A DNA stretch of 64,000 nt, from contig CAVPSB010000021.1 in the NCBI GenBank assembly GCA_963708025.1, positions 1 to 64,000 of the forward strand, given 5' to 3'. The position numbers were made by a program, and so were the translations under genes. This document shows positions 3-42,521 of the stretch, one piece after another. The DNA is from an uncultured Candidatus Rokubacteria bacterium (GTDB lineage Bacteria; Methylomirabilota; Methylomirabilia; Rokubacteriales; DASRDR01). The notes under the pieces were generated by a model. The model searched no databases. It saw nothing but the letters and a program-made list of their open reading frames with translations, and was not told the DNA's origin. Within the stretch, counting starts at the first letter, position 1; the number at the start of each line of letters is the position of its first letter.

Positions 3-2252
3 AAGATGCAGGAGAAGGTGACTGGGAAGATCCTGACGCTGGACCGCGCGCTGGAGCCGACGCTGCCCGCCCTCCTTTCGCTCCTGGATGTGCCGGTCGA
101 GGAGGCCGCCTGGCGGACGCTCGACCCGTCCCAGCGTCGGCAGCGCACGCTGGATGCGCTCAAGAGGCTCCTCCTGCGAGAGGCCCAGGGTCAGCCGGTG
201 CTCGTCGTCTTCGAGGACCTTCATTGGATCGACGGCGAGACGCAAGCGCTTCTCGACGGCTTGGTCGAGAGCCTTCCGGCCGCGCGGCTGATGCTCCTGG
301 TGAACTACCGCCCGGAGTACGAACACCGCTGGGGCAGCAAGACCTACTACACGCAGCTGCGCCTGGACCCGCTGCCACCGGAGAGTGCCGGGGAGCTCCT
401 CCAGGCGTTGCTCGGCGGCGACCCGAGCCTCCAGCCGCTGACTCGACTCCTCATCGAGCGCACCGAGGGGAATCCGTTCTTCCTGGAGGAGAGCGTCCGC
501 ACCCTGGTCGAGACGGGCGCGCTCATCGGGGGGCGAGGCGCCTACCGGCTGGGCACGCCCGCGGCGGTCATCCAGGTGCCGGCGACGGTGCAGGCCGTGC
601 TGGCTGCCCGGATCGACCGACTGCCACCGGAGGAGAAGCGGCTCCTTCAGACCTCCGCCGTCATCGGGAAGGACGTGCCCGAAGCCGTGCTCCAGGCCGT
701 CGCCGAGATGCGCGAGGAGGACCTTCGGCGGGGGCTCGCACACCTCCAGGCGGCAGAATTCCTGTACGAGACGAGCCTCTTCCCCGAGCTGGTGTACACG
801 TTCAAGCACGCGCTGACCCAGGAAGTGTCGTACGGGAGCCTGCTGCACGACCGGCGACGGGCGTTGCATGCTCGAGTCCTGGCCGCCATGGAAGACGCGG
901 GCTACGGCCGGCTCTCGCTGAACACGGAGCGGCTTGCACACCACGCGCTGAAGGGCGAGGAATGGGCCCGGGCCGCGCAGTATCTCCATCTCGCCGGTCG
1001 GCGGGCCATCGCGGAAGTGCGATTTCCAAGTGCCATCGGCTTCTACGAGGCCGCGATCCGAGCTCTGGACCAACAGGGCGAAGATGCCGACCTGGCACTG
1101 AAACTCGATGCCTATCTCGAGCTCGGTACCGCACGAACCGAATCCGGCCAGCTCGAGGGGTACAAAGAGTTGTTGGCCCAAGCCGACGCGCTGGCGCGGG
1201 CACTGAATGACCGCGAGCGACTCGCCCAGGTCCGCGTGAGACAGGCCCAGGGTCTGTGGAACCTGTGGTCGGGGCCGGGCAACCTGAATGGCGCGATCGA
1301 GGTGGCGCGGGAGGCGTTCGCGCTGGCGGCTCCTGATGACCTCAGGACGCGCAGCTATGCGCAGTTCCTCGTGGGCGCCGCCTCCCTCGCCCGTGGAAGC
1401 TTCCAGGACGCAGTCCAGGAGTTCGACGCCGGCGTGGCCCTGTTCACCGCGGTGCCGGTTGACGCGGAGGCGGCCGGGCTGGTTCTCCCCATCCGGGGGA
1501 GCATCCGGGGCTGGGAGGCCGAGGCGTACGCCGCGCTCGGTGAGTTCGGACCAGCCCTTGCTGCGGCGGACGAGGCCCAGCGAATCGCGAGCCAGTTGCG
1601 CCACACTTCGACCGATGGGCTCGCCGGGGCGTTCTCGGGCAACGTCCTCCTGATGCGGGGCCAGCTTGAAGCCGCCGCGCGCGCGTTCGAGCGCGGACTT
1701 GCCAGCGGGCGGTTTGTCTCGGCCAACTCACTGGGCCTCGCAACCTCCCACCTCTTGCTGGGCCGGCGCGCTGACGGTATGAGAACACTGGCGCGGGCCT
1801 TCGAGATCATGGGCGACCCACTCGGGCCACAGTCGAAGATCCTCACCCGGTACGGGTTCCTTGCCGCGGGGGCGTATCTGGCGGCTGGGCTGCTAGAAGA
1901 AGCGGCAGCGGACGCGGCTCGAGGGCTCGCACTCGCGACGGTGGACAACGCGCGAGCGTACCACGTGCCCCTCGGCCGGATCCGCGCCGAGGCGCTCGCC
2001 CTCCAGGGCAAAGAGCCTCGCCGCGATGAGGCACTCTCGGGCTGGGGCCGGCTCATCGAACTCGCGACGGAACTGTCGATGCGTCCGGAGCTGGCCCACT
2101 GCCACCTCGGCCTCGGCAAGCTCTACCGTCGCACCGGTGACGGCGTGAAGGGCCAGGAGCACCTGACCACCGCCGCGACGCTGTACCGCGAGATGGACAT
2201 GGGCTTCTGGCTGGCGCAGGCGGAGGCGGCTGAGGCGACGATCGGAAACTAG
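3..2252 (+). CDS. STAND-type AAA ATPase with TPR-like C-terminus (adenylate/guanylate cyclase-associated family), 5'-truncated by the window edge
   Basis: Walker B VFEDLHWID, RTEGNPFFLEE, VPATVQAVLAARIDRL and YTFKHALTQEV motifs, followed by helical repeats. The frame is open to the window edge. Confidence 0.85.
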   Translation, partial: KMQEKVTGKILTLDRALEPTLPALLSLLDVPVEEAAWRTLDPSQRRQRTLDALKRLLLREAQGQPVLVVFEDLHWIDGETQALLDGLVESLPAARLMLLVNYRPEYEHRWGSKTYYTQLRLDPLPPESAGELLQALLGGDPSLQPLTRLLIERTEGNPFFLEESVRTLVETGALIGGRGAYRLGTPAAVIQVPATVQAVLAARIDRLPPEEKRLLQTSAVIGKDVPEAVLQAVAEMREEDLRRGLAHLQAAEFLYETSLFPELVYTFKHALTQEVSYGSLLHDRRRALHARVLAAMEDAGYGRLSLNTERLAHHALKGEEWARAAQYLHLAGRRAIAEVRFPSAIGFYEAAIRALDQQGEDADLALKLDAYLELGTARTESGQLEGYKELLAQADALARALNDRERLAQVRVRQAQGLWNLWSGPGNLNGAIEVAREAFALAAPDDLRTRSYAQFLVGAASLARGSFQDAVQEFDAGVALFTAVPVDAEAAGLVLPIRGSIRGWEAEAYAALGEFGPALAAADEAQRIASQLRHTSTDGLAGAFSGNVLLMRGQLEAAARAFERGLASGRFVSANSLGLATSHLLLGRRADGMRTLARAFEIMGDPLGPQSKILTRYGFLAAGAYLAAGLLEEAAADAARGLALATVDNARAYHVPLGRIRAEALALQGKEPRRDEALSGWGRLIELATELSMRPELAHCHLGLGKLYRRTGDGVKGQEHLTTAATLYREMDMGFWLAQAEAAEATIGN

Positions 2253-2589: not shown

Positions 2590-5500
2590 CTACGCCGATC
2601 CGGTCAGATCGTACAGCGGTCGGACGGCGGGGGCTTGGTCCAGACTCGTGCGGAGCCTTTGATCTCTCAAGGTTCCTTTCACGCGGTCAACGACATCGCG
2701 CGCAGCGCGGTAGGCCTCACGGGCCAAGTCATGCCGCCCCCGTGCCGCATGGAGCCGTCCCAACGCCGCGCGCGTCGTCCAGATCTGCGTCGGGTTGCCG
2801 ATCGCCTCGGCGATGGTAAGGGCCTGCTGGTAGGCCGTCTCGGCATCGTCCTGCTGTCGCCGGGCGAGGGCGATGTGGCCCCGGAGGCGCCACCCCTTCG
2901 CCAGGTTCTTTCTTGAGTTCGTGCGCGTCGCGAGATCCAGGCAGCGGTCGCCAAACTCCGTCGCGCGGTCGGGGTCGCCGCGGGCCAGCCACAGCTCCCC
3001 CAAGCTCGCGAACAGCCTCATCGAGTAGCGCCAGCGCATCCACTGGCTGGTGCGCGGGTTGTCCCAGAAGCGATACGCGCTCTCGAGGTGCTCTGCGGCC
3101 TCGGCGAGATCCCCCTTCGCGAGGTAGACCTCTCCGAGGTTGACCTCGGCGTTCGGGAACGTCCCAGGGTCGTCCCGCCGCCGACCCACCTCGGCGCTCT
3201 GGCGATTGAGATCGATGGCCCCGTCGAGATCTCCCAGTTCCGCATGCAGCCAGCCGAGACAGTTGAGCAGGCGGTGGTGGATCGCCTCGTCGCCGACCTT
3301 CTCGGCAAAGCTCAACCCCTCTCGGAACAGTGTCAGCGCGGCCTCGTAGTCGCCCTTGCCGGTGAGCGTCATCCCGTGGATGAAGAAGTTGAAGAGGAGG
3401 GGGACGAGGAGGTGATGCTCCCGGGCCAGGACCAGGCCTTCGGCCTGGAGCCGCGATGCGGCGTCGTACTCCCCTTCCCAGTTCTTCAGGACCCCCGCGA
3501 CGGACAGCGACAGGGACCGGGTGGCCCACTCGCGGCTGGAGAGGCTGGTCACCAGCGCCTGGTCGATCGCGCCCCTGGCCTCGTCGAGGCCGCCGCTCAC
3601 GGCGCGCACGAACCCGATGGTGAATTGCGCGCGGGCCATGGTGGCGCCACCGCCCGGCCCCGCCACCCTAATCGCCTCCCGGGCGTGCGCCACGGAGCCG
3701 TCGAGGTCGCGCGCCCACATCGCCGCCCAGCCGATGGCAGCCAGCGCCTTGGCTTCGCGCGCCCGATCCCCGATTTGGCGGGCGAGGACCATCACCCGCT
3801 CGGCCTCGGCCCGTGATCGGTCGAACTCGCTCAGGACGAAGTACAGCGCCGCCCTCGCCTCGTGAATCTCGCTGACGGCTCCCGGATCCGCCAGCCCGCC
3901 CGGGCGGCCGGCCGCCTCGAGGGCCTGGTCGTACAGCGTGAGCGCCTCACGAACGGCGAACGCGCGCGCAGCCTTCGCGGCCGCCCTCACGAGGTACGTG
4001 AGCGCCTTCGGCCACTCCCCGGCCTTCGAGAAGTGGTGGGCCAGGACCTCCTCCTGCCCGGGCAGACGGTCCGCGTAGAGCTCTTCGATCGCGAGCCCGA
4101 CCCGTCGATGGAGGTCAGCTCGGCGCGCGGGGTCGAGCGAGCCGTACACGACCTCGTGCGTCAGCGCGTGGGTGAACGCATACGTGAGCTCGGGGAAGGG
4201 GCTCTTCTCCTGCACCAGCTCGGCGGCCGTGAGCTCGCGGAGCGGGCCGTCGCTCCCCTCGGGGGACTCGACAACGCGATCGACGAGCCGTCGGCTGAAC
4301 TCCCGGCCGATCACCGACGCCACCTCGAGGATCTGCCGCGAGGCGTCGCCCAGTCGCTGAATGCGCGCCCGGACCACGTCGTGGATCGTGACCGGCACGA
4401 CGAGCGCCTCGAGGTCATGCACCACGACCAGCTCGCTCCCCTCACGACGCAGCGCCTCCGTCTCCTGGAGCGAGCGCAACACCTCCTCCACGAAGAACGG
4501 GTTCCCCTCGGTCCGGCGGACCAGGAGCGCCTGCAGGGCTTCCGGGAGCTCATCGGCCGACAAGAGCCCCCGCGCCATCGTGGCACTGTCGGCCGCCGAG
4601 AGGGCCGCCAGGGTGAGTCGCGTGTGGAAGATCCGGTCGCCGAGCGGCGGCGCGTATCCCGGCCGGTGCGTCACGATCATGAGGCTCCGGTGGGCCACGA
4701 GACTGTCCGCCAGCGCCGCGATGAACTCCTCCGTGGCTCGGTCCGCCCAGTGCAGGTCTTCCCAGACCACGATGATCGGTCGGCGCTCGGCGCTGCGCAC
4801 GAGCTGCCGTCGCATCGCGTCGAAGATCTCCGCCCGCCGGAGCTTCGGGTCCAGCTGGAGGACCCCGGCGTCGGCGGGATCGATCGACAGCAGGTGTCGC
4901 ACGAACGGAAGCCCGGGCCGAAGGTCCTCGCCGAGCTGGAGCACCGCTCGCTCGATCTTCTCGATGATCAGCGCCGGAGGGTCAGCCTCGTCGATCCCGA
5001 ACGCGTGGCGGACGAGGTCGATGAGCGGGTGGAACGGGATCGTATGGCCGACGGACAGTGCGTGCCCCTCCATCCACGTCGCCCCTTCGCGGACGCGACG
5101 CCGGAACTCCCGCAGGAGCCGGGACTTGCCAATGCCCGGCTCCCCGACGATCGACACGAGCTGCCCATGACCCGCGCGAGCCTGGTCGAGGCGCTCGCGG
5201 AGCAGCCCCAGCTCGGCCTCGCGGCCCACGAACGCGGTGAGCCCGTGCTCGAAATCGCGCGCGCCGACGAGCCGACGCCCGCCGGCCGCGGGCCCCATCC
5301 CGGCACTGATCGGGACCAGCTCGAACCGCCGGGCCAGCAGAGCTGCCGTCTGGGGGCTCACCGCCACCGTGCCCGTCTCGGCCTGCTCCCCCAGCGCCTC
5401 CAGGACGGCCCAGGCGGGGCGCTTGGCATCCCCATCGACGGCCATTCCCTCGCGATGTCGACCGACCCGGGTCAGCTCGGTGTGGAGCGCGAGGGTCACC

Positions 5501-6863
5501 GCGGGCCGGGTCGGGTTCTCCTCTCGCGCCCTGGAGGCGATCTTCTGGATCGCGACCGCGGCAAAGGCGGCGTGCTCCACCGCGTCCTCCACCGGCGTCA
5601 GGCCGAAGGCCGCGATCAGGCCCGTCGCGCTCAGCTCGTCCACGACGCCGCCGAAGCTCTGGACCTTGTCGACGATGGCTTCCATGGCTCGGCTGAGCTC
5701 AGACGACCCACACTCCTGTCCGGACGATCCGAGCCGCGCCCGCAGAAAAGTCACGCGTCGCGACTCCCAGCGGATCCTTGTCGGCGCGGCACTCGCCGGG
5801 GGCACGGAAGGCAGCGCGGGCGCCTGCTCTGCTGGTTCGGCCGGCTCGGTGACCTCGCGGATCCCTGGGCGGCGGGGAGCCGGGCTCCCAGAGCCCAGCC
5901 CGTGCTTTTCCATCCGGTAGCGCAGGGTATTCCGCGGGACTCCAAGCTGGGCGGCCGCCCGCGAGATGTTCCATCTGGCCGCGCGGAGTATGGTGAGGAG
6001 ACGGTCCCGTTCCGCTTCCGTCTCCGCCTCGCGGGCCGCGCGCCGCTCCTCCGCACCGCTCGGCGACCTCGCATCGAGGCCGCCGCGGGGCGGCAGCCCC
6101 AGCATCTCCGGGGTCACGGCGGCTCCCTCCGAGAGTAGCGCTACCCGTTCCATCACGTTTCCCAGTTCCCGGACATGACCAGGCCACGGGTGGGCGAGTA
6201 GCATGGCCCGCGCCTCACGGGTCAGCGTCTTGAGCGGCAGCCCGTACGCCTCGCAGGCGCGTCGAAGGAAGTGCTCGGCCAGGCGCAGGATGTCCTCGCC
6301 CCGCTCGCGGAGCGGCGGCAGTCGGAGCGTGACCACCGCGAGTCGGTGATAGAGGTCCTCCCGGAAGCGCCGCGCTCGGACGGCCCCGTCCAGGTCCTCG
6401 CTGGTGGCGGCGATCAGCCACAGGTTGACCGCCTCGCTCCGCGTGCCTCCTAGCCGCCGCACCGTGCGCTCCTCGAGCACCTTGAGGAGCTTCGCCTGGA
6501 GGCTTTCCGGAAGGAGGCCCACCTCGTCGAGGAACAGCGTCCCCCCTGAGCCGCCTGAAAGAGCCCCACCTTGGCCTGCCGGGCATCCGTGAACGCCCCC
6601 CGCTCGAATCCGAACAGCTCGGCTTCGAGCAGGGTCTCGGGGATGGCCGCGCAGTTGACGTCGATGAACGGCCCCGCGGCCCGCGGGCCAGCCCGGTGAA
6701 TCACGCTTGCGAGCAGGCCCTTGCCGGTCCCGGTCTCTCCGAGGATGAGGATCGGCGGCAGGCGGCGTAAGCCCACGGCCTGTCGCTCGAGCAGGCGCGT
6801 GACCTGGTCGCGGATCGCCACGATCCCGGGGCTCTCGCCAAAGATCTCTTTCAGCGCCGGCAC
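2590..6863 (-). CDS. Giant sigma-54 enhancer-binding protein: AAA activator + Fis HTH + degenerate cyclase-like domain + STAND ATPase + TPR; one frameshift at ~6541-6546
   Basis: GETGTGK, NCAAIPETLLEAELFG and GAFTDA motifs. Restoring one base in the C6 run gives GGTLFLDEVG. Then FREDLYHRL, WPGHVREL, HTH WNISRAAAQLGVPRNTLRYR, a second Walker A GEPGIGKS, and WEDLHWAD. GTG start has a GGAG RBS. Confidence 0.85.
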
Positions 6864-6976
6864 GTCTCCAATCCTAACGCGCCGGCCGGGTGTCGAACAC
6901 TGCCGAAATCCGCCGGTCTTCGGCGCTGCGGGCCCCCGGGTTGCGGGTAAGTGACCGAGTTTCAAGGCGTTCGAGT

Positions 6977-6991
6977 TGGCACTCCTATTGC
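6977..6991 (+). promoter_or_regulatory. sigma-54 (-24/-12) promoter upstream of the mtoX operon
   Basis: TGGCAC-TCCTA-TTGC matches TGGCAC-N5-TTGC exactly. It lies in the divergent intergenic region beside a sigma-54 activator gene. Confidence 0.85.
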
Positions 6992-7051
6992 CCCTCGAAA
7001 TGCGGAAACAGGATCCCGGCGGGACCCAAAGCCGGGGGAAGGGAGCGAGCG

Positions 7052-7216
7052 ATGCGCAACGGTCCACGAGGCATCGACCGAGTGCTGGGCTATCTGGGTC
7101 TGCTCCTCATCGGCACCCTGGACTGGGCCGCCGACCGTATCCATGTCGGGCCGACGGTGTTTCGGGGGACTGCCCATCCACCCATCGCACATGCCTCAAG
7201 GAGGGCTCACGCATGA
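7052..7216 (+). CDS. Possible 54-aa small protein upstream of mtoX
   Basis: ATG with a GGGAG RBS ~60 nt after the sigma-54 promoter. Contains the hydrophobic stretch VLGYLGLLLIGTL. Its stop overlaps the mtoX start (ATGA). Confidence 0.4.
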   Translation: MRNGPRGIDRVLGYLGLLLIGTLDWAADRIHVGPTVFRGTAHPPIAHASRRAHA

Positions 7217-8538
7217 AGACCGTACGGAGAGACAGACTCACCTGGTACGCCGCCACGGTGGCGATCGCGATCGTGCTCACGGTCGTCGGCCGCCCGGTGT
7301 GGGCGGACGAGACATGCCAATCGCCCTACATGCCCAAGATCACCGGGGAGGAAGAGTTCGTCTACGTCTGGACCCTCGGCGTCGAGGGTCTTGGTGACGG
7401 GTCGGACAAACTGGTCACGGTGGACGCCCGGCGCGGGTCGCCGACCTTCGGGCAGGTGATCCATACCATCTCGGTAGGTGGACGCCACGAGGCCCATCAC
7501 GCCGACTTCACGGATGACCGGCGCCACCTCTGGGCGAGCGGCCTCGACACGAGCCAGATCTTCGTATTCGACGTGCACACCGATCCGGCGAAGCCGCGCC
7601 TCGTGAAGACGATCGACGACTTCGTCCAGGCGTCCGGTGGCGTGGTGGGTCCACACGGCTTCTACGCCCTGCCCGGCCGCATGCTGATCGGCGGTCTGTC
7701 CAATGCGAAGGACCAGACAGGCCGCACAGCCCTCGTCGAATACACCAACGAAGGCGGGTACATTGCCACCCACTGGATGCCGACCGACGCGGCTCCGCTG
7801 GGAGCCGTCGTCGAGAAGGTCGCAGACGGCTACGGCTACGACGCCCGCGTCCTGCCCCGGAAGAACGTCATGTTCACGACGTCGTTCACCGGGCGGTCGA
7901 ACTACCTCATGGATTTCGGCCAGATGCTGAAGGACGAGGCGGCCATGAAGCGGTTTGGCCAGACCGCCGTGGTGTGGAACTTCCATACCCGCCAACCGAA
8001 GAAGGTCTTCCACGTGCCAGGGGCGCCGCTCGAGGTGCGGGTGGCGTGGGGGCCGACACACAACTACGCCTTCACCACGACCGCCCTGACCTCCCAGATC
8101 TGGCTCATCTACGAGGACGAGCGGGGCGAGTGGCAGGCCAAGGCCGTCGCCGACATCGGCGACCCGAAGAAGATCCCGCTGCCGGTGGACATCAGCCTCT
8201 CGGTCGACGACCGGATCCTCTGGGTCAACTCGTTCATGGACGGGATGGCTCGGGCCTTCGACGTCTCCGACCCGTTCCACCCGAAGCCGATCTACGAAAA
8301 GCAGATCGGCCGCCAGCTCAACATGGTCTCCCAGAGCTGGGATGGCAAGCGTCTCTACTTCACGAGCTCGCTCCTGGCTCACTGGGACAAGCAGGGCGCG
8401 GACAACGAGCAGTTCCTGAAGGCGTACACCTGGGACGGCCAGGAGCTCCGAGACCGCTTCGCGCTCGACTTCACGGCGCTCAAGCTCGGACGACCACACG
8501 TGATGCGGTTCGGCAGCCGCGAGCTCTATCGGAACTGA
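7213..8538 (+). CDS. mtoX: Methanethiol oxidase-like protein / selenium-binding protein SBP56 family, secreted
   Basis: Signal peptide, then DETCQSPY...VWTLG, GSDKLVT, EAHHADFTDDRR, GPHGFYALPGRM, VPGAPLE, PLPVDIS, NMVSQSWDGKR and WDKQG, all typical of bacterial MtoX. Confidence 0.9.
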   Translation: MKTVRRDRLTWYAATVAIAIVLTVVGRPVWADETCQSPYMPKITGEEEFVYVWTLGVEGLGDGSDKLVTVDARRGSPTFGQVIHTISVGGRHEAHHADFTDDRRHLWASGLDTSQIFVFDVHTDPAKPRLVKTIDDFVQASGGVVGPHGFYALPGRMLIGGLSNAKDQTGRTALVEYTNEGGYIATHWMPTDAAPLGAVVEKVADGYGYDARVLPRKNVMFTTSFTGRSNYLMDFGQMLKDEAAMKRFGQTAVVWNFHTRQPKKVFHVPGAPLEVRVAWGPTHNYAFTTTALTSQIWLIYEDERGEWQAKAVADIGDPKKIPLPVDISLSVDDRILWVNSFMDGMARAFDVSDPFHPKPIYEKQIGRQLNMVSQSWDGKRLYFTSSLLAHWDKQGADNEQFLKAYTWDGQELRDRFALDFTALKLGRPHVMRFGSRELYRN

Positions 8539-8545
8539 CCCCGCC

Positions 8546-8573
8546 GGGCGCCAGGCGCCGGCGCCTGGCGCCC
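8546..8573. repeat. Perfect 28-bp palindrome between mtoX and the SCO gene
   Basis: GGGCGCCAGGCGCCGGCGCCTGGCGCCC equals its own reverse complement. It starts 7 nt after the mtoX stop and has no U-tract. Confidence 0.8.
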
Positions 8574-8603
8574 TCGAGGTCGAACGTCGAGGGGAGAGAC
8601 GAC

Positions 8604-9338
8604 ATGCGCACCACCCGGATCGCTCACGTGACCGTCCTCGCGACCGTGGCCATGGCGGTGGTCGGCGCGCCCGGCCCGGGCGCCTGGGGCCACCCCGGGC
8701 AGTCGCACGGGAGGCCGCCCGAGCCGTCGGCGGTCGAGGCCTCATTCGGGCGCCGCGTCGAGTTCGACGCCCCCGCGCCGGGGAGCTATCGGCTGCCCGT
8801 CATCAAGCCCGCGCCGGACGGGGCAGTGCTCGACGCGGGCGGCGTCGAGCGCCGCTTGCACCAGCTGATGGCCGGCAAGGTCGTCGCCCTGAGCTTCGTC
8901 TACACTCAGTGCAGCGACGCGCGGGGCTGTCCCCTCGCGACCGCCGTCCTCTCCCAGATCCACCAGGCGAGTGCATCAGACCCGGCGCTCGCCGAGCACC
9001 TCAAGCTCATCACCCTGAGCTTCGATCCGGCGCACGACACCCCGGCGGTGATGGCGCGCTATGCCCGTCCACGCGACCCCGCGGCTCGGGCAAGCGAGTG
9101 GCAGCGCCTGACCACGGCTTCCGAGCGTGCCCTCGCCCCCATCCTCGCCGGCTACGGCCAGCTTGTCTCCCGGCCAACCGGCAGCCGGGCCGCCGGCCTG
9201 ACCCACCGCCTGCGCGTCTACCTCATCGACCCTCAGCAGCGGATCCGGAACATCTACGGGCTTGACTTCCTCGACCCGGGGCTCCTCCTAGCCGACGTCC
9301 GGACACTCCTCCTCGAGGAGCAGCGAGGTCGCCGGTGA
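8604..9338 (+). CDS. SCO1/SenC family copper chaperone
   Basis: Signal peptide, SFVYTQCSDARGCP, LSFDPAHDTP and H-x-LRVYLID. SCO genes are known neighbours of mtoX. Confidence 0.9.
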   Translation: MRTTRIAHVTVLATVAMAVVGAPGPGAWGHPGQSHGRPPEPSAVEASFGRRVEFDAPAPGSYRLPVIKPAPDGAVLDAGGVERRLHQLMAGKVVALSFVYTQCSDARGCPLATAVLSQIHQASASDPALAEHLKLITLSFDPAHDTPAVMARYARPRDPAARASEWQRLTTASERALAPILAGYGQLVSRPTGSRAAGLTHRLRVYLIDPQQRIRNIYGLDFLDPGLLLADVRTLLLEEQRGRR

Positions 9339-9437
9339 CGGCCCGGGCCGCGAGAGTCGGATTCCTCGGGTCACCCCACTCGTCACCGATGCGAGGCAAA
9401 ACGTCAGAGAGAGGTTCGGGCAGGAGGCCCCGGCCGA

Positions 9438-10337
9438 CTATTGGGACAGGACGAGCGAACACAGGCGCTGCTCGGCCCTGGCCCTCAGGTCGTCGAGCTT
9501 GAACATCGCGCCGAACTGTTCGAGCGCGAACGAGGCCGACACCGCGCCGTAACGGCCCGCTTGCCCCAGGTCGCCCGTCTCGGCCAGCCCGACCAGAAAG
9601 CCGCCACAGTACGCGTTCCCGGCACCCGTCACGTCCACGATGTTGGCGACGGGCACGGCGGGCACGGCCACCGGGGCCTCGCCCTGGCCGGCCACCAGAC
9701 TCCCCGCCTCTCCCATTCGCAGCACGGCCACCCGCACCCCGGCCTCCAGAAGCGCCGCCAGGACCTGCCACGGATCCTCGAGCCCGGTCAGACGCCGGGC
9801 TTGGAACAGATTGGGGGAGACCACGTCCAGCAGCGGGGCGAGCTCGCCGAACAGCGCTCGGTTCTGTGGCCGGCAAAAGACGTTCCACGGCTCCCAGAGG
9901 ATGTGGCGACAGCCAGCGGCCCGCAGGCGCGCCATCCACTCGCGGAGCGGGTCGGGCGCATCGCACTCGAGGCGGGCGCCCCTGGCGCCGGCATACTCCG
10001 CCGGCAATTCGTCCGGCCGCGGACACATGGCCATGAACAGGGCCACGTCGGTGCGGTCCACGTGGGTACGGCGACCGTCGTGCTCGTACAACTGCCAGGC
10101 CCGAGGGGACGGCGCGTCACGCCTCACCGGACCACTCAGGTCGAACGCCCGCGCCAGCTCTCGACGATCCGCTTCGGGGACGTCGCGGCCGAGGGCCGCC
10201 AGGAGCGCCACCGGCCCGCTCCACACGCGCATCCCCATCGCCGCGTGCGTCGCCCCTCCCCCGAGCACCCCCATGCGGGTCTGACCATCCGGCAGGACGA
10301 TGTCGTCAATGACGACCGAGCCGATCGACAGGAACAT
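9438..10337 (-). CDS. PfkB family carbohydrate kinase
   Basis: N-terminal LGGGATHAA and C-terminal VDVTGAGNAYCGGF signature. Confidence 0.9.
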   Translation of the reverse strand: MFLSIGSVVIDDIVLPDGQTRMGVLGGGATHAAMGMRVWSGPVALLAALGRDVPEADRRELARAFDLSGPVRRDAPSPRAWQLYEHDGRRTHVDRTDVALFMAMCPRPDELPAEYAGARGARLECDAPDPLREWMARLRAAGCRHILWEPWNVFCRPQNRALFGELAPLLDVVSPNLFQARRLTGLEDPWQVLAALLEAGVRVAVLRMGEAGSLVAGQGEAPVAVPAVPVANIVDVTGAGNAYCGGFLVGLAETGDLGQAGRYGAVSASFALEQFGAMFKLDDLRARAEQRLCSLVLSQ

Positions 10338-17782: not shown

Positions 17783-20700
17783 GTGATCGAGCCTCACCGC
17801 GACCCTGGCGCTTCGCGCGTCCCGCCCGGCGAGGCCGAGGAAGGCCCCGAGCGTCCCGGGGAAGCCGACAGCGTCGGGCGGCCGCTCGATGACCCACGGC
17901 CGCCCGGCTCGTCCCTCCTCGAGCTGGACGAGGAGCGGAAGGTCGTGTCGATTCTGTTCGTCGACCTCGTCGGGTTCGCTGCGCGATCGGATCGGGCCGA
18001 CCCCGAGGACGTCCGGGCCACACTCCGGCCTTACTACACCTGCGTCAGACGAGAGCTTGCGCGATGGGGCGGCACCGTGGAGAAATTCATCGGGGATGCC
18101 GTGATGGCCATCTTCGGCGCTCCCGTGGCTCACGAGGACGATGCCGAACGGGCGGTGCGGGCCGGCCTTCGCGTCGTCCACGCGGTCCAGGAGCTGAACG
18201 CGACCGAGCCAGGGCTCGGACTGGCTCTCCGGGCCGCCGTCACCACCGGGGAAGCGGTCGTGGCGCGTAGGGCCAGGACGGTGGAAGGCGAGGGCATTGC
18301 GACGGGCGATGTGGTCAACACGGCGGCCCGTCTCCAGGTGATCGCCCCGGTCGGAGCGGTGGTGGTTGACGAGGTGACCTATCGGACGACCCGGCATCTC
18401 GTGGACTACGAGACGCTCGAACCCGTCTCGGTCAAGGGAAAGCCCGCGCCGATCCGGGTGTGGCAAGCCAAGGCCGCCCGCAGTCGATACGGCGCGGATG
18501 TCGCGCAGCCGACGCCCTCGCCCTTCATCGGCCGCAACCACGAGCTGGCGCTCCTGAAGGCCATGTACGCTCGCGCCGCGCGGGAGGCTTCGTTGCAGCT
18601 CGTCACGGTGACCGGCGAGCCGGGGATCGGGAAGAGTCGCCTGGTGCGGGAGTTCCGCGCCTTCGTCAACTGGCAGCCCGAGCGGGCGCGCTGGCGGCAA
18701 GGCCGATGCCTTCCCTATGGGGAGGGCATCACCTTCTGGGCATTGGGGGAGATCGTCAAGAGTCAGGCGGGAATCCTGGAATCGGACAGTCCACATGAGG
18801 CATCCGACAAGCTCACGGCGGCCATCGGTGCGATCGTGGACGATCCCACCGAGCGGGACTGGCTCAAGACCCGCCTGGCCTTCTTGGTTGGCACGAGCGC
18901 CCCCGGCGTCGGGGCCCCGGCCGAGCGATCCGAATCGTTTGCCGCCTGGCGGCGTTTCCTCGAGGCCATCGCGGCCGACCGGCCGCTGGTCCTCGTCTTC
19001 GAGGACGTGCACTGGGCCGGCGCCGAGCTGCTCCAATTCGTGGAACATCTCGTGGACTGGGCGGCCAGCCTGCCGTTCCTGGTCGTCTGCACGACGAGGC
19101 TCGAGCTCTTCGAGCGTCATCCGGGATGGGGCGGCGGCAAGCGGGACTCCACGACCATTTCGCTCTCCCCGCTCTCTCGTGAAGAAACGGCCCGGTTGAT
19201 CGCCGCGCACCTCTCCGAGGCCGCGCTCCCGCCCGAGACCCAGATCGCGCTCCTCGAGCGAGCGGGCGGAAATCCGTTGTACGCCGAAGAATTCGCTCGC
19301 ATGCTCAGTGACCGCGGGATGCTCGAACGCCGGGGACAGACCATGCAGCTTGCGGTCGGCGCCGACATCCCGGTGCCCGAGACCGTCCAGGCCGTGATCG
19401 CCGCCCGGCTCGACACGCTGCCAACCGAGCGGAAGGCGCTCCTCCACGACGCCGCCGTCGTGGGCCGAGCCTTCTGGGTGGGCGCGCTGGCCTTCATGAG
19501 CGGGCTCGACGAGCGCGCGGTGGAACAAGGCCTCCGGGCGGTCGCCAAGAAGGAGCTCGTGCGTCCCGTGCGGAACTCGTCGGTCAAAGGTCAGGCCGAG
19601 TATTCGTTCGGCCACCTGCTCATCCGTGACGTCGCCTACCAGCAGATCCCCCGAGCGGCGCGGGTGCGCAAACACCGGGCGGCCGCCGCCTGGATCGAGC
19701 GCCTGGCCGGGGACCGGGTGACCGACCACGCCGAGATCCTCGCGCACCACTACGGGCAGGCCCTTCAGCTCGCGAAGGCCGCCGGGCTGGCTGACGACAC
19801 GCGCGAGCTCGAGGCTCAGGCCCGGCGCTTCCTGATCATGGCCGGGGACCGAGCGCTCGAGTTCGACGCCCGGAAGGCGGAGGCCTTCTACCGGCAGGCG
19901 CTCACGCTCTGTCCTCCGCGTCATCCCGACCGCGCAGGGCTGCTCGGGAAGACAGCCGAGGCCGCCCTCGTCGGCGGCCGGCTGTCCGAGGCCCAGCGTG
20001 ACTTCGAGGAGGCGATCGTCGAGTTCCGCGCTCAGGGGGAGACCCTCGGCGCCGGCGAGGTGATGGTGCGGCTGGCCAGGACGTACTGGTTCCGGGGCGA
20101 GACAGACCGAAAACGGGCGCTTCTCGTGCAGGCGATCGACCTGCTCGAGCGCGAGCCGCCCGGCCGCGAGCTGGCCTTGGCCTACACTCACACCGCCGCG
20201 GACCACATGGTCGCCAACCGCTCCCAGGACTGCGCCGTGTGGTCGGAGAAGGCCCTGGCCCTGGCCCAGGAGCTCGGGCTCGATGCCGAGGGCATCCGGG
20301 CGCGTCAGCTCCGGGGGCTCGCGCGGTGCCAGCTCAGCGACGTGGGCGGAGGCCTTGCCGACCTGCGGGAAGCGCTTCGCCTCAGCCTCGATCTCGGGCT
20401 GGGAAACGAAACGATCCGGTCCTACGGAAACCTCGGCGACTGGGTATGGCTAGCCGAGGGTCCGGCCCGGGGCCTGGACGTCAAGCGGGCGGGGATCGAG
20501 TTCGGGGAGCGGCGCGGGCTCACCCTTCCGGTCATGTGGGCCAAAGCCGAGACGCTCTGGCCTCTGTTCGACCTCGGCCAATGGGACGAGCTGCTTCGCG
20601 TCGCCGGGGACGTGATCGAGTGGGACCGGCGACAGGGCGGGGGTCAGGTGACCGTCGTCGCGCTCACGTACATGGCGTACGTGCTCGTGTGCCGCGGAGA

Positions 20701-21271: not shown

Positions 21272-24200
21272 CCGAAGAGCGCCGCATCGTAACCGTGCTG
21301 TTCGCGGACATGACGGGCGCGACAGCGCTCGGCGAGGCCCGTGATCCCGAGGATGTTCGAGCCCTCCTGACGCGCTATTACAGCATCGCGAGAGAAGTGG
21401 TCAGCGCGCACGGCGGCACCCTCGAGAAGTTCATCGGCGACGCCGTGATGGCGGTCTTCGGGCTTCCCCAGGCACACGGTGACGATGCCCAGCGCGCGAT
21501 GTCGGCGGCGCTCGAGATCCGCGACCGCGTCCGGGCGGACCCGAAGCTCGGTCCCCAGCAGCCGGTGCGCATCGGGGTGAACACCGGCGAGGTGGTCGCC
21601 ATGCGCGACGGCGCCGCCAGCGACTTCCTGATCACTGGCGACGCCGTGAACGTTGCCGCGCGCCTGCAGCAGACCGCCGAGCCGTGGACCATCCTGTGCG
21701 GCGAGCGGACCGCCCGGGCTGCTCGGGACCGGTTCACCCTGGGCCGTCCGACCGAGATCGATGTGAAAGGAAAGCGGCTGCCGATCCAGGCGCTGCCCCT
21801 CCTCGGGCGGGCGGCCGAGGCCGCGCTGTCCCGCTTCCCGCTCATCGGCCGGGACGACGACCTGGCGCAGCTCGAGCTGGTCGCCCGGCGGGCCTTCACG
21901 GATCGCCGGCCATTTCTCGTGAGCCTCATCGCGCCCGCCGGCACCGGGAAGACCCGCCTGGTGGAGGAGTTCCTGCATCGGCTGCCCGCACTCTCGCCCG
22001 ACGCAACGGTGGCGATCGCGCAGTGTCTCCCTTACGGCCAGCGGGTCACCTACTGGCCGCTTCGCGCCCTGCTGGTCCGCCTCGTCGGCTTGAAGGAAGA
22101 GGCAGCGCCGGAAACCGTGCGCGAGGCGATTCGGGTCTGGCTTCACGACCGCGGTGTCGAATCACCCGAGCGTGCGGCAGACCTGCTCGCCGCGACGATC
22201 GGCGCCGGTGAACCGGAGGTCATCGACCGGCCCGCCCTCTTTGCTGCCTGGCGCACGGCCATCGAGGTGGCGGCGCGACGGTCGCCGCTGGTTCTGGTGT
22301 TCGAGGACCTGCACTGGTCGAGCGACAGCCTCCTCGATCTCGTGGAGTTCATCGTGCAGCCCCGGGGCGATGCGGCGGTGCTCATGATCGCCCTCACCCG
22401 TCCGGAGCTGCTCGATCGGCGCCCCGCATGGGGAGGAGGCCGGCGGAACTACGTCGCCTTGTCGATGGAGCCCCTCAGCGACGATTCGGTCGCGCAACTG
22501 GTCCGCCACATGGTCGGCCCCGATGCCCCGCGGATCGTCGAGCGTGTCGTGGCCCGCGCCGAAGGCAATCCCTTCTTCGCGGGCGAGATCGTCCAGTCGA
22601 TCAGGGAACGCGTCCTCTCGCTGAGTGATGTCGCTGCCGTCGAGCATGCGCTCGCGACGCTCCCCGACACGATCCAGGCGACCATCCTGGCGCGACTCGA
22701 TCTCCTGGAGCCGGCGGAGCGGCGGATCTTGCAGCTCGGCGCGGTGTTCGGGCGGGCGTTCCGCGTGGCCGGAATCGCCGCCCTCGGACCGGAGCTGGCG
22801 CCCGACAGCGACGCGCTGGTGGATCGGCTCGTCCGGAAGGATCTCATCCGGCCCTCGGCCGGAGACAGCTTTGCCTTCCGCCACATCCTGATCCGAGAGG
22901 TGGCCTATCAGACGCTGCTTCGCGCGGAACGGGCGGACTTGCACGCGGCGGCCGCCCGCCGGCTCGAAGGACGTGCTGGCGGGCAAGAGGATGCGCTTGC
23001 CGAGCTGATCGCCTATCACTTTCGCGAAGCCGCCACCCTCACCAGCGTGACCAAGATCGCGCAGCTCGACGCGGTCGAGATCCGGCGAAAGGCGGTGGGC
23101 TGGCTCAAGCGCGCGGCCGACGTGGCGGCGGCCGGCGCCGCGACAGCCGAAGCCGCCCGGCACCTGCGCGCGGCCATCGAGCTGGCGGCGACCGATGACC
23201 TCCCGGAGCTCCAGGAGCGCCTCGGTGACGTGTCCGGGGGAGACGCCGGGGCGGAGGCGTACCGGGCTGCCCTTCGGCTCTGCCGGGAGCTGGGCCGGCC
23301 GGTCGATCAGGAGCTGCGCATCCTGGGCAGCCTCCTCACCCGGTACATGCGTTTTCAGGGGACGGTGGGGGACCGGCCGTCCGAGGAGGAGATCCTACGA
23401 CTCCGCGCGGACGGCCGGGCGCTCCTCGACCAGGCTCGTGACGAGCGGGCCATCGCGAGCTTCCTGATCGCGGACGGGTTCTATCCGTTCTGGCGAGGGG
23501 CGCAGGCAACGGTATCGGACATCGCCGAAGCCGAGGCGAGCACGGGACGCGGCCTGGCGATCGCCGACCGCCTCGACGATCCCCGGCTCCGCAGCGCCGC
23601 GCTCGACGCACTCACCTGTTGCGCGCAAGCGCGCGGGGCGTGGGCGCAGTCCCGACAGTGTGCCCAGCAGCGTCTTGCCTTCGAGGACCGCCTCGATCTC
23701 CACGAACGCCTCGACGCCTACACGATGGTGGCGTGGGCCTCGGCCCTGCTGGGCGACCTCGCCCAGGTGGACCGCGCGACCGCCTCGGCTCTGGGTCTGT
23801 TTCAATCCGGGCAGGTCCACTGGTGGGGGCTCCACTCCGCTGCCTGGCGGGCGTACGCCCTGACGCTCCTCGGGCGGTGGGACGAGGCGCTCGCCGTCGC
23901 CGAGCACGCTCGCAAGATCTGGGCCGAGGGGGGACTCATCCCGGCCGCGTACTGTGTCCATGGCTTCATCGCCGCCCTGGATGTCGGGCGGGCCCGTCAC
24001 GACAGCCAGCTCGTCGACCGGTATCGCGCGGTGCTCGACGAGATCCTGAAGCACTTTGCCGCGGACTCCCTCTTCGGGCGATTGCGCCCGTATGGCCGCG
24101 GAGACCTCGAAACGCTGGAGGCGGAGGTCGTCCGGGGCTTCGGCACGATTCCGCGCGCCCGGCAGCAGCTCGTCGAGCGCACGCTCTCGCTGTGTGCCGA

Positions 24201-42506: not shown

Positions 42507-42521
42507 GCAACGAGAGTGCCA
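42507..42521 (-). promoter_or_regulatory. sigma-54 (-24/-12) promoter
   Basis: Minus strand reads TGGCAC-TCTCG-TTGC, ~95 nt upstream of the 42411 start. Confidence 0.75.

Follow-up and report, generated by a model that had tools for sequence, protein, structure and literature searches.

A sigma-54 activator fused to a pseudo-cyclase, STAND ATPase and TPR module, and its pairing with a methanethiol oxidase operon in an uncultured Rokubacteria genome

The locus studied here raises a double question: how could a sigma-54 activator that carries its sensory domains behind its ATPase motor be controlled, and which promoter does it serve? We analysed a stretch of 64,000 nucleotides from a contig of an uncultured Candidatus Rokubacteria bacterium (hereafter, the window), in which such a gene lies divergent from a methanethiol oxidase (mtoX) operon.

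Domain organization and family of the fused activator

The gene encodes a protein of ~1424 aa if it is read through a break in its frame. The N-terminal frame starts at GTG 6863 and breaks at 6541-6546, while the remainder of the protein corresponds to the ORF 6522-2590, with the stop codon at 2590-2592. The features of the gene are as follows.

2590..6863, minus strand: fused activator/pseudo-cyclase/STAND ATPase/TPR gene (ORFs, translations, tblastn)
6541..6546: C6 run (coding strand: G6) at the frame break (sequence and homologue comparison)
6100..6863, minus strand: sigma-54 AAA+ domain and lid (PF00158, 102 and 64.8 bits; AAA_lid_14, 71.4 bits)
5905..6018, minus strand: Fis-type helix-turn-helix HTH_8, DNA-binding domain (PF02954, 43.1 bits, cut-off 22)
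5227..5793, minus strand: degenerate class III cyclase-homology domain, or pseudo-cyclase (AF2, Foldseek, profile search against PDB sequences)
4672..5232, minus strand: STAND-type P-loop NTPase AAA_16 (PF13191, 91.5 bits, cut-off 32.6)
2653..4044, minus strand: TPR/MalT-like superhelical sensor region (TPR_MalT, 78.9 bits; TPR_12, 79.3 bits; structure model)

The Sigma54_activat model (PF00158) is shared between the two pieces: the N-terminal one covers positions 11-95 of 168 (102 bits), with GETGTGK and GAFTDA, and the C-terminal one covers positions 103-167 (64.8 bits), followed by AAA_lid_14, HTH_8, AAA_16, TPR_MalT, and TPR_12. The AAA+ domain begins at residue ~8, with no N-terminal regulatory domain ahead, and contains the Walker A GETGTGK, the GAFTDA loop, the Walker B LFLDEV, REDLYHRL, and PWPGHVREL; many NCBIfam activator models match this region at 1e-25 to 1e-46. 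The gene product is a bacterial enhancer-binding protein with a sensory module of ~1000 residues placed C-terminal to the AAA+ motor and the helix-turn-helix (HTH).

The first domain of this module was modelled with a pLDDT of 87.3, and its best Foldseek matches were the class III cyclases Rv1625c, CyaB, Cya2, and RhoGC (E ~5e-11 to 3e-10; for 7yz9, E 4.6e-11 and TM 0.71). A profile search against PDB sequences picked out CyaB (E 0.049), relative to which Arg stands in place of Asp1 and Gly in place of Asp2; none of 15 orthologues (0/15) matched Pfam PF00211. Since both metal-binding Asp are lost, the synthesis of cAMP or cGMP is excluded, and the cyclase-like domain without catalytic motifs that had been read from the sequence is borne out by both its fold and its substitutions. 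The domain is predicted to form a homodimer: the model reaches a score of 0.54, compared with 0.02 for the highest of three controls, with at least 88% of the contacts in agreement among runs and a partner pLDDT of at least 81. As a benchmark, this score was reached by 20/30 proteins solved as pairs of one chain and by 1/23 solved as single chains, counts that hold only roughly because our own alignment was used. The homodimer pass may also reflect likeness to class III cyclases, dimers of which are solved.

The second P-loop NTPase and the TPRs were likewise found by both Pfam and the structure model. The STAND NTPase carries the Walker A GEPGIGKS and a Walker B-like VVWEDLHWAD, and the TPR region is modelled as all-helical repeats. 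The model of residues 425-1310 (NOD-TPR) has a pLDDT of 90.1; its best Foldseek match was the STAND-TPR protein PH0952 (6mfv_A; E 3e-14, 740 columns), with Avs3 and Apaf-1 also among the matches. Hence, the domain order given in the original prediction (activator and HTH, pseudo-cyclase, STAND ATPase, TPR) agrees with the Pfam and NCBIfam profiles and with the AF2/Foldseek folds, and all the elements that it named were found where it had placed them.

Among the 120 homologues listed, 113 combine the activator motif with the STAND Walker A, and 115 have a recognizable loop motif, which is GAFTDA in 99 and GAFTGA in 16; Asp thus occupies position five of the GAFTGA loop in most members of the family. 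A match at E<=1e-100 was present in 137/151 genomes of the same order. The family is widespread among uncultured Rokubacteria of soil. Our literature search found no description of a fused sigma-54 activator/STAND family.

The reading frame break at 6541-6546

At the break site, the homologues carry 'AAQGGTLFLDEVG', which needs seven G, and one G added at 6541-6546 yields their 'QGGTLFLDEV'. When the intact homologue P0003 (1425 aa, 88% identical) was aligned by tblastn, it gave two pieces abutting exactly at 6540 (residues 1-108 and 109-1424); one base is missing, and no further breaks or stops were seen over the full length. We read the break as an assembly error because the single-copy ileS gene of the same assembly is also frame-broken, being split over three frames by two breaks that can hardly be real, and because contigs of relatives from two metagenome runs carry one more base at the C6 run. 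These contigs come from relatives ~96% identical, of a strain other than the source, and their depths are low (4.79 and 3.61), so that either one, taken alone, could be mistaken.

Alternatively, the missing G could be real: the activator would then be a recent pseudogene, and the mtoX operon would be silent or driven by a paralogous fused activator using the shared TGTCGAA half-site. The break does stand in the assembled sequence, and indel errors are not frequent in the assembly, since the other seven of the eight long housekeeping genes tested lie in one frame, ileS being the exception. Moreover, real decay occurs in the fused family, as paralogue C18 of the same genome has four frame changes and no promoter; promoters have been lost beside orthologues in two related genomes and, besides this gene and C18, the genome has at least three fused paralogues with elements of the TGTCGAA type. 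On the other hand, besides the broken ileS and the extra base in the relatives' contigs, the gene is otherwise 88% identical to an intact homologue over its full length, and the promoter, the small ORF, mtoX, and SCO1 described below are all intact. A recent pseudogene therefore appears rather unlikely, and the single-base break is most likely an assembly error. The original prediction had treated a real frameshift as grounds for rejecting it: the break is indeed in the sequence, but, given ileS and the relatives' contigs, a real lesion is less likely than an assembly error.

The break could also be bridged in expression, either by transcriptional slippage or by a −1 shift of the ribosome on CAG_GGG_GGA (G_GGG_GGA). 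In this frame the six-G run matches the pattern X_XXY_YYZ, and either event would give exactly the QGGT of the homologues. However, the loss of any one base from a seven-G run yields the same pattern, and the full-length homologues listed are all encoded in one frame, which makes slippage very improbable.

Pairing of the activator with the mtoX operon

The region on the other side of the activator start contains the following features.

6891..6925: candidate enhancer (UAS) made of four half-sites and conserved between the genes of related loci
6948..6967: AAGTnnCnnnnTTT-like spacer motif, conserved as judged by eye; the −24 element follows ~30 nt downstream
6977..6991, plus strand: sigma-54 promoter −24/−12 element TGGCACTCCTATTGC (match to TGGCAC-N5-TTGC)
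7052..7216, plus strand: 54-codon ORF (tblastn in L002 and L004; alignment of eight loci)
7213..8538, plus strand: mtoX, methanethiol oxidase of the SBP56 family (NCBIfam NF052453)
8604..9338, plus strand: SCO1/SenC-type copper chaperone (PF02630, 50.3 bits, cut-off 22.8)

The TGGCACTCCTATTGC promoter, which had been placed ~115 nt upstream of the activator and pointing at mtoX, lies 114 nt upstream of GTG 6863 and is directed at the 54-codon ORF, mtoX, and SCO1/SenC. The TGGCAC-N5-TTGC pattern has two matches in the window against 0.06 expected (two matches occurred in 0/100 shuffles), and rpoN was found in the genome. The predicted mtoX and SCO genes downstream were confirmed by their profile scores: mtoX matches the NF052453 equivalog (MthilOxMtoX) with 737.7 bits (cut-off 650) and Pfam SBP56 with 153.6 bits. 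SCO1/SenC is the final gene of the operon, the next ORF being on the opposite strand, and it follows mtoX in 15/15 related loci fetched around an mtoX gene. The 54-codon ORF is an addition to the earlier account. In the alignment of eight loci it has the core DRxLGYLGLxLIGxxxWxADR with one hydrophobic helix, and its TGA stop overlaps the mtoX ATG (ATGA); it matched no Pfam family and is missing in the three genomes of genus g33, whose intergenic regions are shorter.

The candidate enhancer reads TGTCGAA-CAC-TGCCGAA-ATCC-GCCGG-TC-TTCGGCG and includes an inverted repeat at 6902-6924. In the window, the half-sites of the left pair are well preserved and those of the right pair degenerate, as they also are in L003, a relative with an intact activator gene. 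The TCGAA lies 85 bp from the −24 GG in the window. Over 13 loci this distance is 85-88 bp; three of them are paralogue loci of the same genome (85-87 bp), where each paralogue has its own TGTCGAA element and divergent sigma-54 promoter. In a second genus, a related element lies about one helical turn further off (94-95 vs 82-85 nt). A GG-N10-GC element occupies the position of the −24/−12 element in each of the first 10 divergent loci examined, and in three others. Lastly, the spacer motif at 6948-6967, spotted in aligned intergenic sequences of genomes of the same family, is a possible DNA-bending site.

The fused activator is divergent from mtoX in 10/15 related genomes with an mtoX-type gene, with activator identities from 83% down to 47%, and the conserved divergent cassette comprises the activator gene, the four-half-site element, the spacer, the GG-N10-GC promoter, and small ORF-mtoX-SCO1. 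Two close orthologues in other genomes (79% and 75% identical) have no sigma-54 promoter alongside. Among 23 distant family members, a −24/−12-like element was found on the divergent strand in 11 (shuffle control: mean 0.83, maximum 4) and on the same strand in none; at 12/23 no promoter-like element was found.

A different reading is that an unrelated enhancer-binding protein serves the promoter at 6977-6991 and that the fused gene controls something else. Indeed, the genome contains many sigma-54 activators (~25 matches of the N-terminal type), and in one related genome the whole cassette precedes mtoX with the activator gene not adjacent. This reading is improbable, considering that adjacency is kept in 10/15 genomes despite activator identities of 47-83% and that the upstream element accompanies members of the fused family, even paralogues having other targets. 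The conserved divergent synteny, which the original prediction depended on, and the element and promoter at fixed spacing give strong support to mtoX as candidate target: the pairing is well supported by comparative sequence data, and the fused activator probably turns on the divergent operon.

Known regulators and possible mode of control

Some enhancer-binding proteins, such as PspF and HrpR/HrpS, consist of AAA+ and HTH only, without an N-terminal regulatory domain; control is exerted in trans, by PspA on PspF and by HrpV on HrpS. Similarly, the fused protein starts at the sigma-54 AAA+, continues with the lid and a Fis-type HTH, and has a sigma-54 promoter nearby; unlike them, it has ~1000 sensory residues in cis after the HTH and, in 99 of the 115 family members with the motif among the homologues listed, GAFTDA in place of GAFTGA. 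Regulatory domains C-terminal to the AAA+ are shared with LevR-type proteins, in which the HTH is N-terminal and PRD/EII domains are under phosphorylation control; a Pfam search found no PRD/EII-type domains in the fused activator. AfsR/SARP-type regulators also join an N-terminal DNA-binding activator to an NB-ARC-type ATPase and TPRs, so the position of the transcription effector ahead of a STAND-TPR module is common to both, but the SARP effector acts on a sigma-70-type holoenzyme and has no ATPase motor.

The cyclase-ATPase-TPR architecture is known from the mycobacterial Rv0386-type LuxR regulators and the TOMM kinase/cyclase fusion family TIGR03903. Positions 326-1170 of the TIGR03903 model align with the last 1000 residues of the fused protein (259.8 bits, far under the family cut-off of 705.75), which contain the same cyclase-homology/AAA_16/TPR module; many unfused copies of this module occur in the genome, three in the window. 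Cyclase activity is described for Rv0386 (PMC3466318); unlike Rv0386-type and TOMM proteins, the fused activator has no kinase, no LuxR HTH, and neither of the metal-binding Asp. The STAND ATPases MalT (E. coli) and PH0952 (Pyrococcus horikoshii), which have a TPR/SUPR sensor (PMC6468293), resemble the fused activator in placing a TPR-type sensor behind an NBD-HD-WHD core and in being transcription activators with an inducer-controlled ATP switch. The MalT effector is a C-terminal LuxR-type HTH recruiting the sigma-70 holoenzyme, whereas in the fused protein the effector sits at the N-terminus and is itself an ATPase, the second in the chain, which needs both to form a ring and to remodel the sigma-54 holoenzyme. 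As for the target, PMC5739008 describes an mtoX-SCO1 operon of Ruegeria pomeroyi with a dedicated adjacent regulator, like that of the window, under IclR-type control and with transcription enhanced by methanethiol. The window locus differs in regulator family and promoter type, in having no mauG after SCO1, and in the small conserved ORF before mtoX.

STAND proteins are described in PMC6468293 as closed ADP-bound monomers that, with an inducer, become ATP-bound multimers. In the model that we favour, dimers of the fused activator, held by the pseudo-cyclase domain, would bind the TGTCGAA/TGCCGAA half-sites through their HTHs, with the STAND core closed (ADP-bound) and restrained by the TPR sensor in the resting state. 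An inducer tied to methanethiol or organosulfur metabolism could open the core, and ATP-bound STAND cores would multimerise, gathering the N-terminal AAA+ domains into an active ring. The symmetry of STAND assemblies may, however, differ from that of the AAA+ hexamer. That ligand-triggered STAND oligomerisation would drive the assembly of the activator ring, the NLR-like switch of the original prediction, is plausible and agrees with the known behaviour of both families.

The same protein and target are also compatible with negative control, in which the STAND-TPR module or the pseudo-cyclase keeps the AAA+ inactive until the inducer releases it, with no STAND role in ring building. Activators of the XylR/DmpR and NorR types are a precedent for release by inducer and, because PspF-like AAA+ and HTH cores are active on their own, a repressing appendage would be the simplest control. 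Furthermore, the structural and synteny data fit this scheme equally well, and STAND proteins with TPR sensors are described as restrained by autoinhibitory contacts (PMC6468293). However, the STAND Walker A is kept in 113/120 of the homologues listed and the Walker B-like motif is also conserved, as would be expected of a functional nucleotide switch more than of a passive clamp; in addition, the four same-face half-sites and the dimerising domain fit stepwise assembly. Neither point is decisive, and we regard purely negative control as possible, though the less probable scheme.

In the assembly model, the AAA+ ring would loop to the sigma-54 holoenzyme at 6977-6991 and open the small ORF-mtoX-SCO1 promoter. 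Because the element lies 28-62 nt before the activator's own start codon, its binding probably also autoregulates the activator gene. Taken as a whole, an activator fused to its sensor, with STAND-driven ring assembly and the mtoX operon as its target, is the explanation that we favour with reasonable, though not high, confidence.

Architecture and frame break of the fused activator

The gene divergent from mtoX (2590-6863, minus strand) encodes an activator of ~1,424 residues, in which a sigma-54 AAA+ core and an HTH are followed by a cyclase-like region, a STAND ATPase, and TPRs. In the assembly it is read in two pieces:

from GTG at 6863, minus strand: N-terminal piece of the activator, the first 108 residues, part of the sigma-54 interaction domain
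6541-6546: C6 run (G6 on the coding strand), the frame break at which the N-terminal frame is lost
6522-2590, minus strand: ORF of the remainder, without any second interruption

The original prediction described an activator AAA domain with the loop GAFTDA and an HTH at the N-terminus, then a cyclase-like domain lacking catalytic motifs, a second P-loop NTPase, and TPRs, and both the Pfam/NCBIfam profiles and the structure models agree with this architecture. PF00158 (Sigma54_activat) scored 102 bits at positions 11-95 (N-terminal piece) and 64.8 bits at 103-167, while the AAA+ lid and HTH_8 (43.1 bits) both lie in ORF 6522-2590. The sigma-54 motor motifs (Walker A GETGTGK, LFLDEV, and REDLYHRL) are present, and the activator loop retains the G, A, F, T, and final A of GAFTGA, with Asp as the fifth residue. 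The sigma-54 gene rpoN is found on contig C10 of the source genome as a 498-aa open frame (Sigma54_DBD, 210.1 bits). Judged by sequence, several features of an enhancer-binding protein are present: an AAA+ domain with Walker A, Walker B, and arginine fingers, an HTH with a candidate enhancer element near a predicted -24/-12 promoter, and rpoN in the genome.

Residues 1-108 of the intact homologue P0003 (1,425 aa, 88% identical) match the first piece and residues 109-1424 the second; the pieces abut at base 6540. At the break, homologues have AAQGGTLFLDEVG, for which seven G are required. One extra base at the C6 run was found in two contigs of ~96%-identical relatives, coming from two other metagenome runs; because their depths are 4.79 and 3.61, a single contig with the extra base could be erroneous. 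In the metagenome run with the largest share of the window's words (X1), no listed near-identical contig piece spans 6482-6549, and when metagenome contigs were scanned with the 96%-identical homologue, the best match reached 67%, so that none was near-identical.

In this assembly (8.17 Mb in 49 contigs, with the window spanning the first 64 kb of contig C21; G+C of the window 71%), rpoB, rpoC, dnaE, two uvrA genes, secA, and gyrA are single-frame. The sole copy of ileS (G000:C3:38677-41249) is spread over three reading frames, with a homopolymer at neither break. Since an essential single-copy ileS can hardly be doubly broken in reality, the assembly has indel errors, roughly two per ~26 kb tested, and these are expected to break further genes. 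Against an artefact at the C6 run stands real decay in the fused family. The fused copy on contig C18 (G000:C18:459648-462484) carries four frame changes, has no sigma-54 promoter or TGTCGAA element upstream, and is probably a genuine pseudogene. The frame-change junctions of the paralogues fail to separate error from decay because only some of them adjoin homopolymers (runs of five or six). A programmed frameshift was judged improbable. A frameshift had been named in advance as evidence against the prediction: it is present in the sequence, but the broken ileS and the extra base of the relatives make an assembly artefact the likely explanation.

Activator orthologues at two other loci, L004 (G029:C14) and L018 (G039:C4), are also frame-changed, with four and two tblastn pieces in differing frames, respectively. 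Both belong to assemblies with low contig numbers, and the orthologues of more fragmented assemblies are single-frame.

The pseudo-cyclase and STAND parts

Residues 284-1109 of the long piece align with positions 326-1170 of NCBIfam TIGR03903 (TOMM kinase/cyclase fusion). Membership of this family was ruled out by the score (259.8 bits against a cut-off of 705.75), the partial profile match, and the absence of the kinase.

The cyclase-like region, 189 residues between the HTH and AAA_16, was aligned from the window and 14 related loci. PF00211, the Pfam class III cyclase family, matched 0/15 orthologues at E ≤ 10, and the kinship with cyclases is visible only by profile-to-PDB and fold comparison. 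When a profile of the alignment was compared with PDB sequences, class III cyclases were four of the five best matches (CyaB, E 0.049). The AF2 model of the region (pLDDT 87.3) matched in Foldseek the cyclase domains of Rv1625c, CyaB, Cya2, and RhoGC, with E-values from 5e-11 to 3e-10 and TM about 0.7. The top match was 7yz9_A (E 4.6e-11, TM 0.71), and of the 189 matches at E ≤ 0.001, every listed one was a class III cyclase. In HMM alignments to Cya2 and CyaB, the first metal-binding Asp position is Arg (FLRARL) and the second is Gly (SATGL). Because both Asp are replaced and PF00211 finds no match, class III cyclase identity was rejected: the domain has the cyclase fold, yet it cannot be a cyclase.

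The two-copy model of this pseudo-cyclase scored 0.54, against 0.02 for the best of three controls, with runs agreeing in at least 88% of contacts and a pLDDT of at least 81. The dimer mark was reached by 20/30 proteins solved as one-chain pairs and by 1/23 solved as single chains, counts that apply roughly here, as the modeling used our own alignment. The model supports a symmetric homodimer, which may pass by likeness, since cyclase dimers have already been solved.

Further along the chain, AAA_16 scored 91.5 bits, with Walker A GEPGIGKS and a Walker B-like VVWEDLHWAD, and TPR_MalT and TPR_12 scored about 79 bits each (TPR_MalT 78.9). For the model of the last 886 residues (pLDDT 90.1), the best structural match in Foldseek was PH0952 (6mfv_A; E 3e-14 over 740 columns), a solved STAND protein with a TPR sensor, and lower matches included Avs3 (8dgc) and Apaf-1 (3sfz, 5juy). 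As modeled, this region has the make-up of a STAND protein with a TPR sensor, with a P-loop NBD, a Walker A, and an acidic Walker B, and with a NOD fold of NBD, helical domain, and winged helix, followed by the repeat sensor. Overall, the effector half resembles PspF, a minimal sigma-54 activator, and the sensor half resembles the STAND proteins MalT and PH0952, preceded by a dead cyclase domain as in cyclase-ATPase-TPR proteins.

Three AAA_16/TPR paralogues of the cyclase-ATPase-TPR type, without the activator part, also lie in the window, at 3-2252 (plus strand), 18065-20407, and 21367-23031; the first is truncated by the contig start and is TIGR03903-like (184.9 bits). Dozens of AAA_16/TPR copies without the activator part are present in the genome.

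A divergent cassette and its conservation

The genes facing away from the activator are arranged as follows:

6977-6991, plus strand: sigma-54 promoter TGGCACTCCTATTGC, 114 nt from the activator start
7052-7216, plus strand: small ORF of 54 codons, whose stop overlaps the next start
7213-8538, plus strand: mtoX (NCBIfam equivalog NF052453, 737.7 bits against a cut-off of 650, profile positions 2-406 of 408)
8604-9338, plus strand: SCO1/SenC gene, directly after mtoX

A TGGCAC-N5-TTGC promoter had been proposed ~115 nt upstream of the activator and directed at mtoX-SCO, and position, direction, and downstream genes all hold. The motif has two matches in the window, against 0.06 expected by chance. 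Simple scans of 6800-9500 gave neither sigma-70-type promoters nor intrinsic terminators. In the candidate enhancer element (6891-6925), the left pair of half-sites (6891-6897 and 6901-6907) is well kept. The right pair is degenerate, as it also is in G013, a related genome whose activator is intact. The available part of PMC5739008 gives SCO1/SenC and MauG as operon partners of mtoX in Hyphomicrobium. In the window, SCO1/SenC comes directly after mtoX, and no mauG adjoins the operon, because the next ORF is on the opposite strand.

The second exact TGGCAC-N5-TTGC match (42507-42521, minus strand) is intergenic; about 95 nt downstream of it begins a small ORF whose first residues resemble a signal peptide (MRKLIAAISVLSVLGVLAMS...). 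Going by its sequence and setting, it is probably another real sigma-54 promoter.

We searched for mtoX in 19 genomes with a fused copy at least 55% identical; 14 were over the cut-off and one more reached 603 bits, and the DNA around the mtoX genes of these 15 genomes was fetched and compared. The fused activator is divergent from mtoX-SCO1 in 10/15 (G035, G013, G029, G017, G033, G081, G109, G011, G059, and G007, with one partner cut by the contig end in the last two), and the activators of these loci range from 83% down to 47% identity to P0003. The expected synteny therefore stands in ten genomes, but an adjacent activator is absent in G021, G039, G026, and G095. In G021, the full upstream cassette precedes mtoX; in the other three, mtoX is only 53-58% identical to that of the window, and the fetched flanks are without a fused activator. 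In G089, the contig stops at the mtoX gene.

The features common to the divergent loci begin 25-65 nt from the activator start codon. The element has the consensus TGTCGAA-AAC-TGCCGAA-T-TCGnCGG-nC-TTCGACA; its four half-sites follow one another at intervals of about 10 bp and form two nested inverted repeats. It is followed by a spacer with a conserved AAGT...TTT motif, by a GG-N10-GC promoter and, within the taxonomic family of the window, by the small ORF, with the core DRxLGYLGLxLIGxxxWxADR. In 13 loci, TCGAA and the -24 GG are 85-88 bp apart (85 in the window). A second genus has a related element (GGAAAACTGnCGAAAC...) at 94-95 nt, against 82-85 nt in the others when measured from the same internal word, which places it one helical turn further from the promoter.

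G043 has no mtoX, and its copy of the element, promoter, and small ORF precedes genes for a Zn-dependent alcohol dehydrogenase and an aldehyde dehydrogenase (L021, G043:C66 8443-11054), which by sequence appears as re-use of the cassette for another target. For the activator orthologues that are 79% (G011) and 75% (G039) identical, the element is degenerate and a sigma-54 promoter is absent. The mtoX of G011 is paired with a 47%-identical paralogue (L009, G011:C72), and the 79%-identical orthologue is found elsewhere (L017, G011:C13). As mtoX pairs here with a distant paralogue and the near orthologue is without a promoter, partner replacement within the fused family is suggested.

At locus L012 (G021:C6), the small-ORF frame apparently enters the mtoX N-terminal region without a stop (...ADETCQSPYMPKI), owing either to a gene fusion or to an indel in the assembly.

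The fused family, its possible mechanism, and its meaning

At E ≤ 1e-100, a family member was found in 137 of the 151 genomes of the same taxonomic order, a tally that includes three unpublished genomes (G083, G032, and G055) from which nothing else here is drawn. Among the best 120 database homologues, 113 combine the activator loop with the STAND Walker A, and the loop reads GAFTDA in 99 and GAFTGA in 16. Where homologues have a named source, it is Methylomirabilota or Rokuibacteriota, and they are annotated, for example, as "sigma 54-interacting transcriptional regulator"; a few full-length fused copies are in bins with other labels. Four more fused copies are present in the source genome. 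In three (C2, C11, and C12), a TGTCGAA element and the copy's own sigma-54 promoter are 85-87 bp apart; the fourth is the C18 copy.

Among the 23 distant fused genes with enough upstream DNA, a -24/-12-like element lies 60-245 nt off on the divergent strand in 11 and on the same strand in none (shuffle control: mean 0.83, maximum 4). Only one of the 23 has a TCGAA-type element at 80-92 bp, so the distant paralogues must use other sites.

First genes behind the divergent promoters of distant members and of the same-genome C2 and C11 copies include:
flavin monooxygenase-like protein
SAM methyltransferase
TauE sulfite exporter
type-2 acyl-CoA dehydrogenase-like protein
another SBP56 protein
2-hydroxyacid dehydrogenase
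thioredoxin/DsbA-like protein
several pairs without a family

Our impression is that these targets lean to sulfur and small-molecule oxidoreductases. Four distant family members (L104, L106, L027, and L026) have a target pair in common, with proteins of about 200 and about 170 aa without a Pfam family. Their GGTA(T/C)C-N4-(C/A)TTGC promoters are 112-124 nt away from the start of the activator, and the pair makes up a conserved but uncharacterised operon.

What the sequences show directly is which parts there are and in what order, that the cassette has a fixed geometry, and that it is inherited together with the fused gene. Sigma-54 activators are AAA+ rings assembled on upstream sites, and in the textbook cases sensing is done by an N-terminal domain or a partner protein. 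STAND/NLR proteins multimerise when induced, and signal in that way. At rest, STAND proteins are closed ADP-bound monomers held by the sensor, which an inducer opens to form multimers (PMC6468293, in the part available). In the mechanism that we propose, the half-sites would be occupied by dimers joined via the pseudo-cyclase domain, an inducer would open the STAND core, and STAND multimerisation would gather the AAA+ domains into a ring able to activate the small ORF-mtoX-SCO1 operon. Equally simple would be an inducer that releases an autoinhibited AAA+ domain, in place of STAND-driven ring assembly. The activator is probably also autoregulated, since the predicted binding is so near its own start.

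The nature of the target and, by analogy, the inducing effect of methanethiol on mtoX in Ruegeria suggest methanethiol as a candidate inducer; the regulator there is an unrelated IclR protein (PMC5739008, in the part available). Extending the proposal of STAND-driven ring assembly, we tentatively consider a broader reading, possible though rather doubtful: a lineage-specific switch class with two ATP machines per chain, whose NLR-like STAND sensor would bind a small volatile or metabolic signal (here methanethiol or an oxidation product), multimerise, and build the sigma-54 AAA+ ring on the four-half-site enhancer, as a "transcriptional apoptosome" of bacteria. In Rokubacteria, this switch would have multiplied into a set of paralogues, each with its own divergent sigma-54 operon, many encoding sulfur or one-carbon oxidoreductases.

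The literature searched contains no account of a sigma-54/STAND fusion, nor of mtoX being under the control of sigma-54, a provisional result, as most subscription journals lay outside the search; a term search of PMC7159879 gave no mention of it. The fused family points to a mode of control of methanethiol oxidase, an organosulfur-cycle enzyme, that is absent from the papers searched; the regulator described for it in PMC5739008, in the part available, is the IclR-type protein of Ruegeria. With a natural fusion of a sigma-54 activator and a STAND protein, one could test directly whether induced proximity is by itself enough to assemble an AAA+ transcription motor, and it would show how two nucleotide switches are coordinated within one chain. 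For such experiments, the conserved cassette supplies concrete DNA sites and targets. Given its presence in most genomes of the order, the fused family is a dominant regulator type in a widespread uncultured phylum of soil and groundwater.
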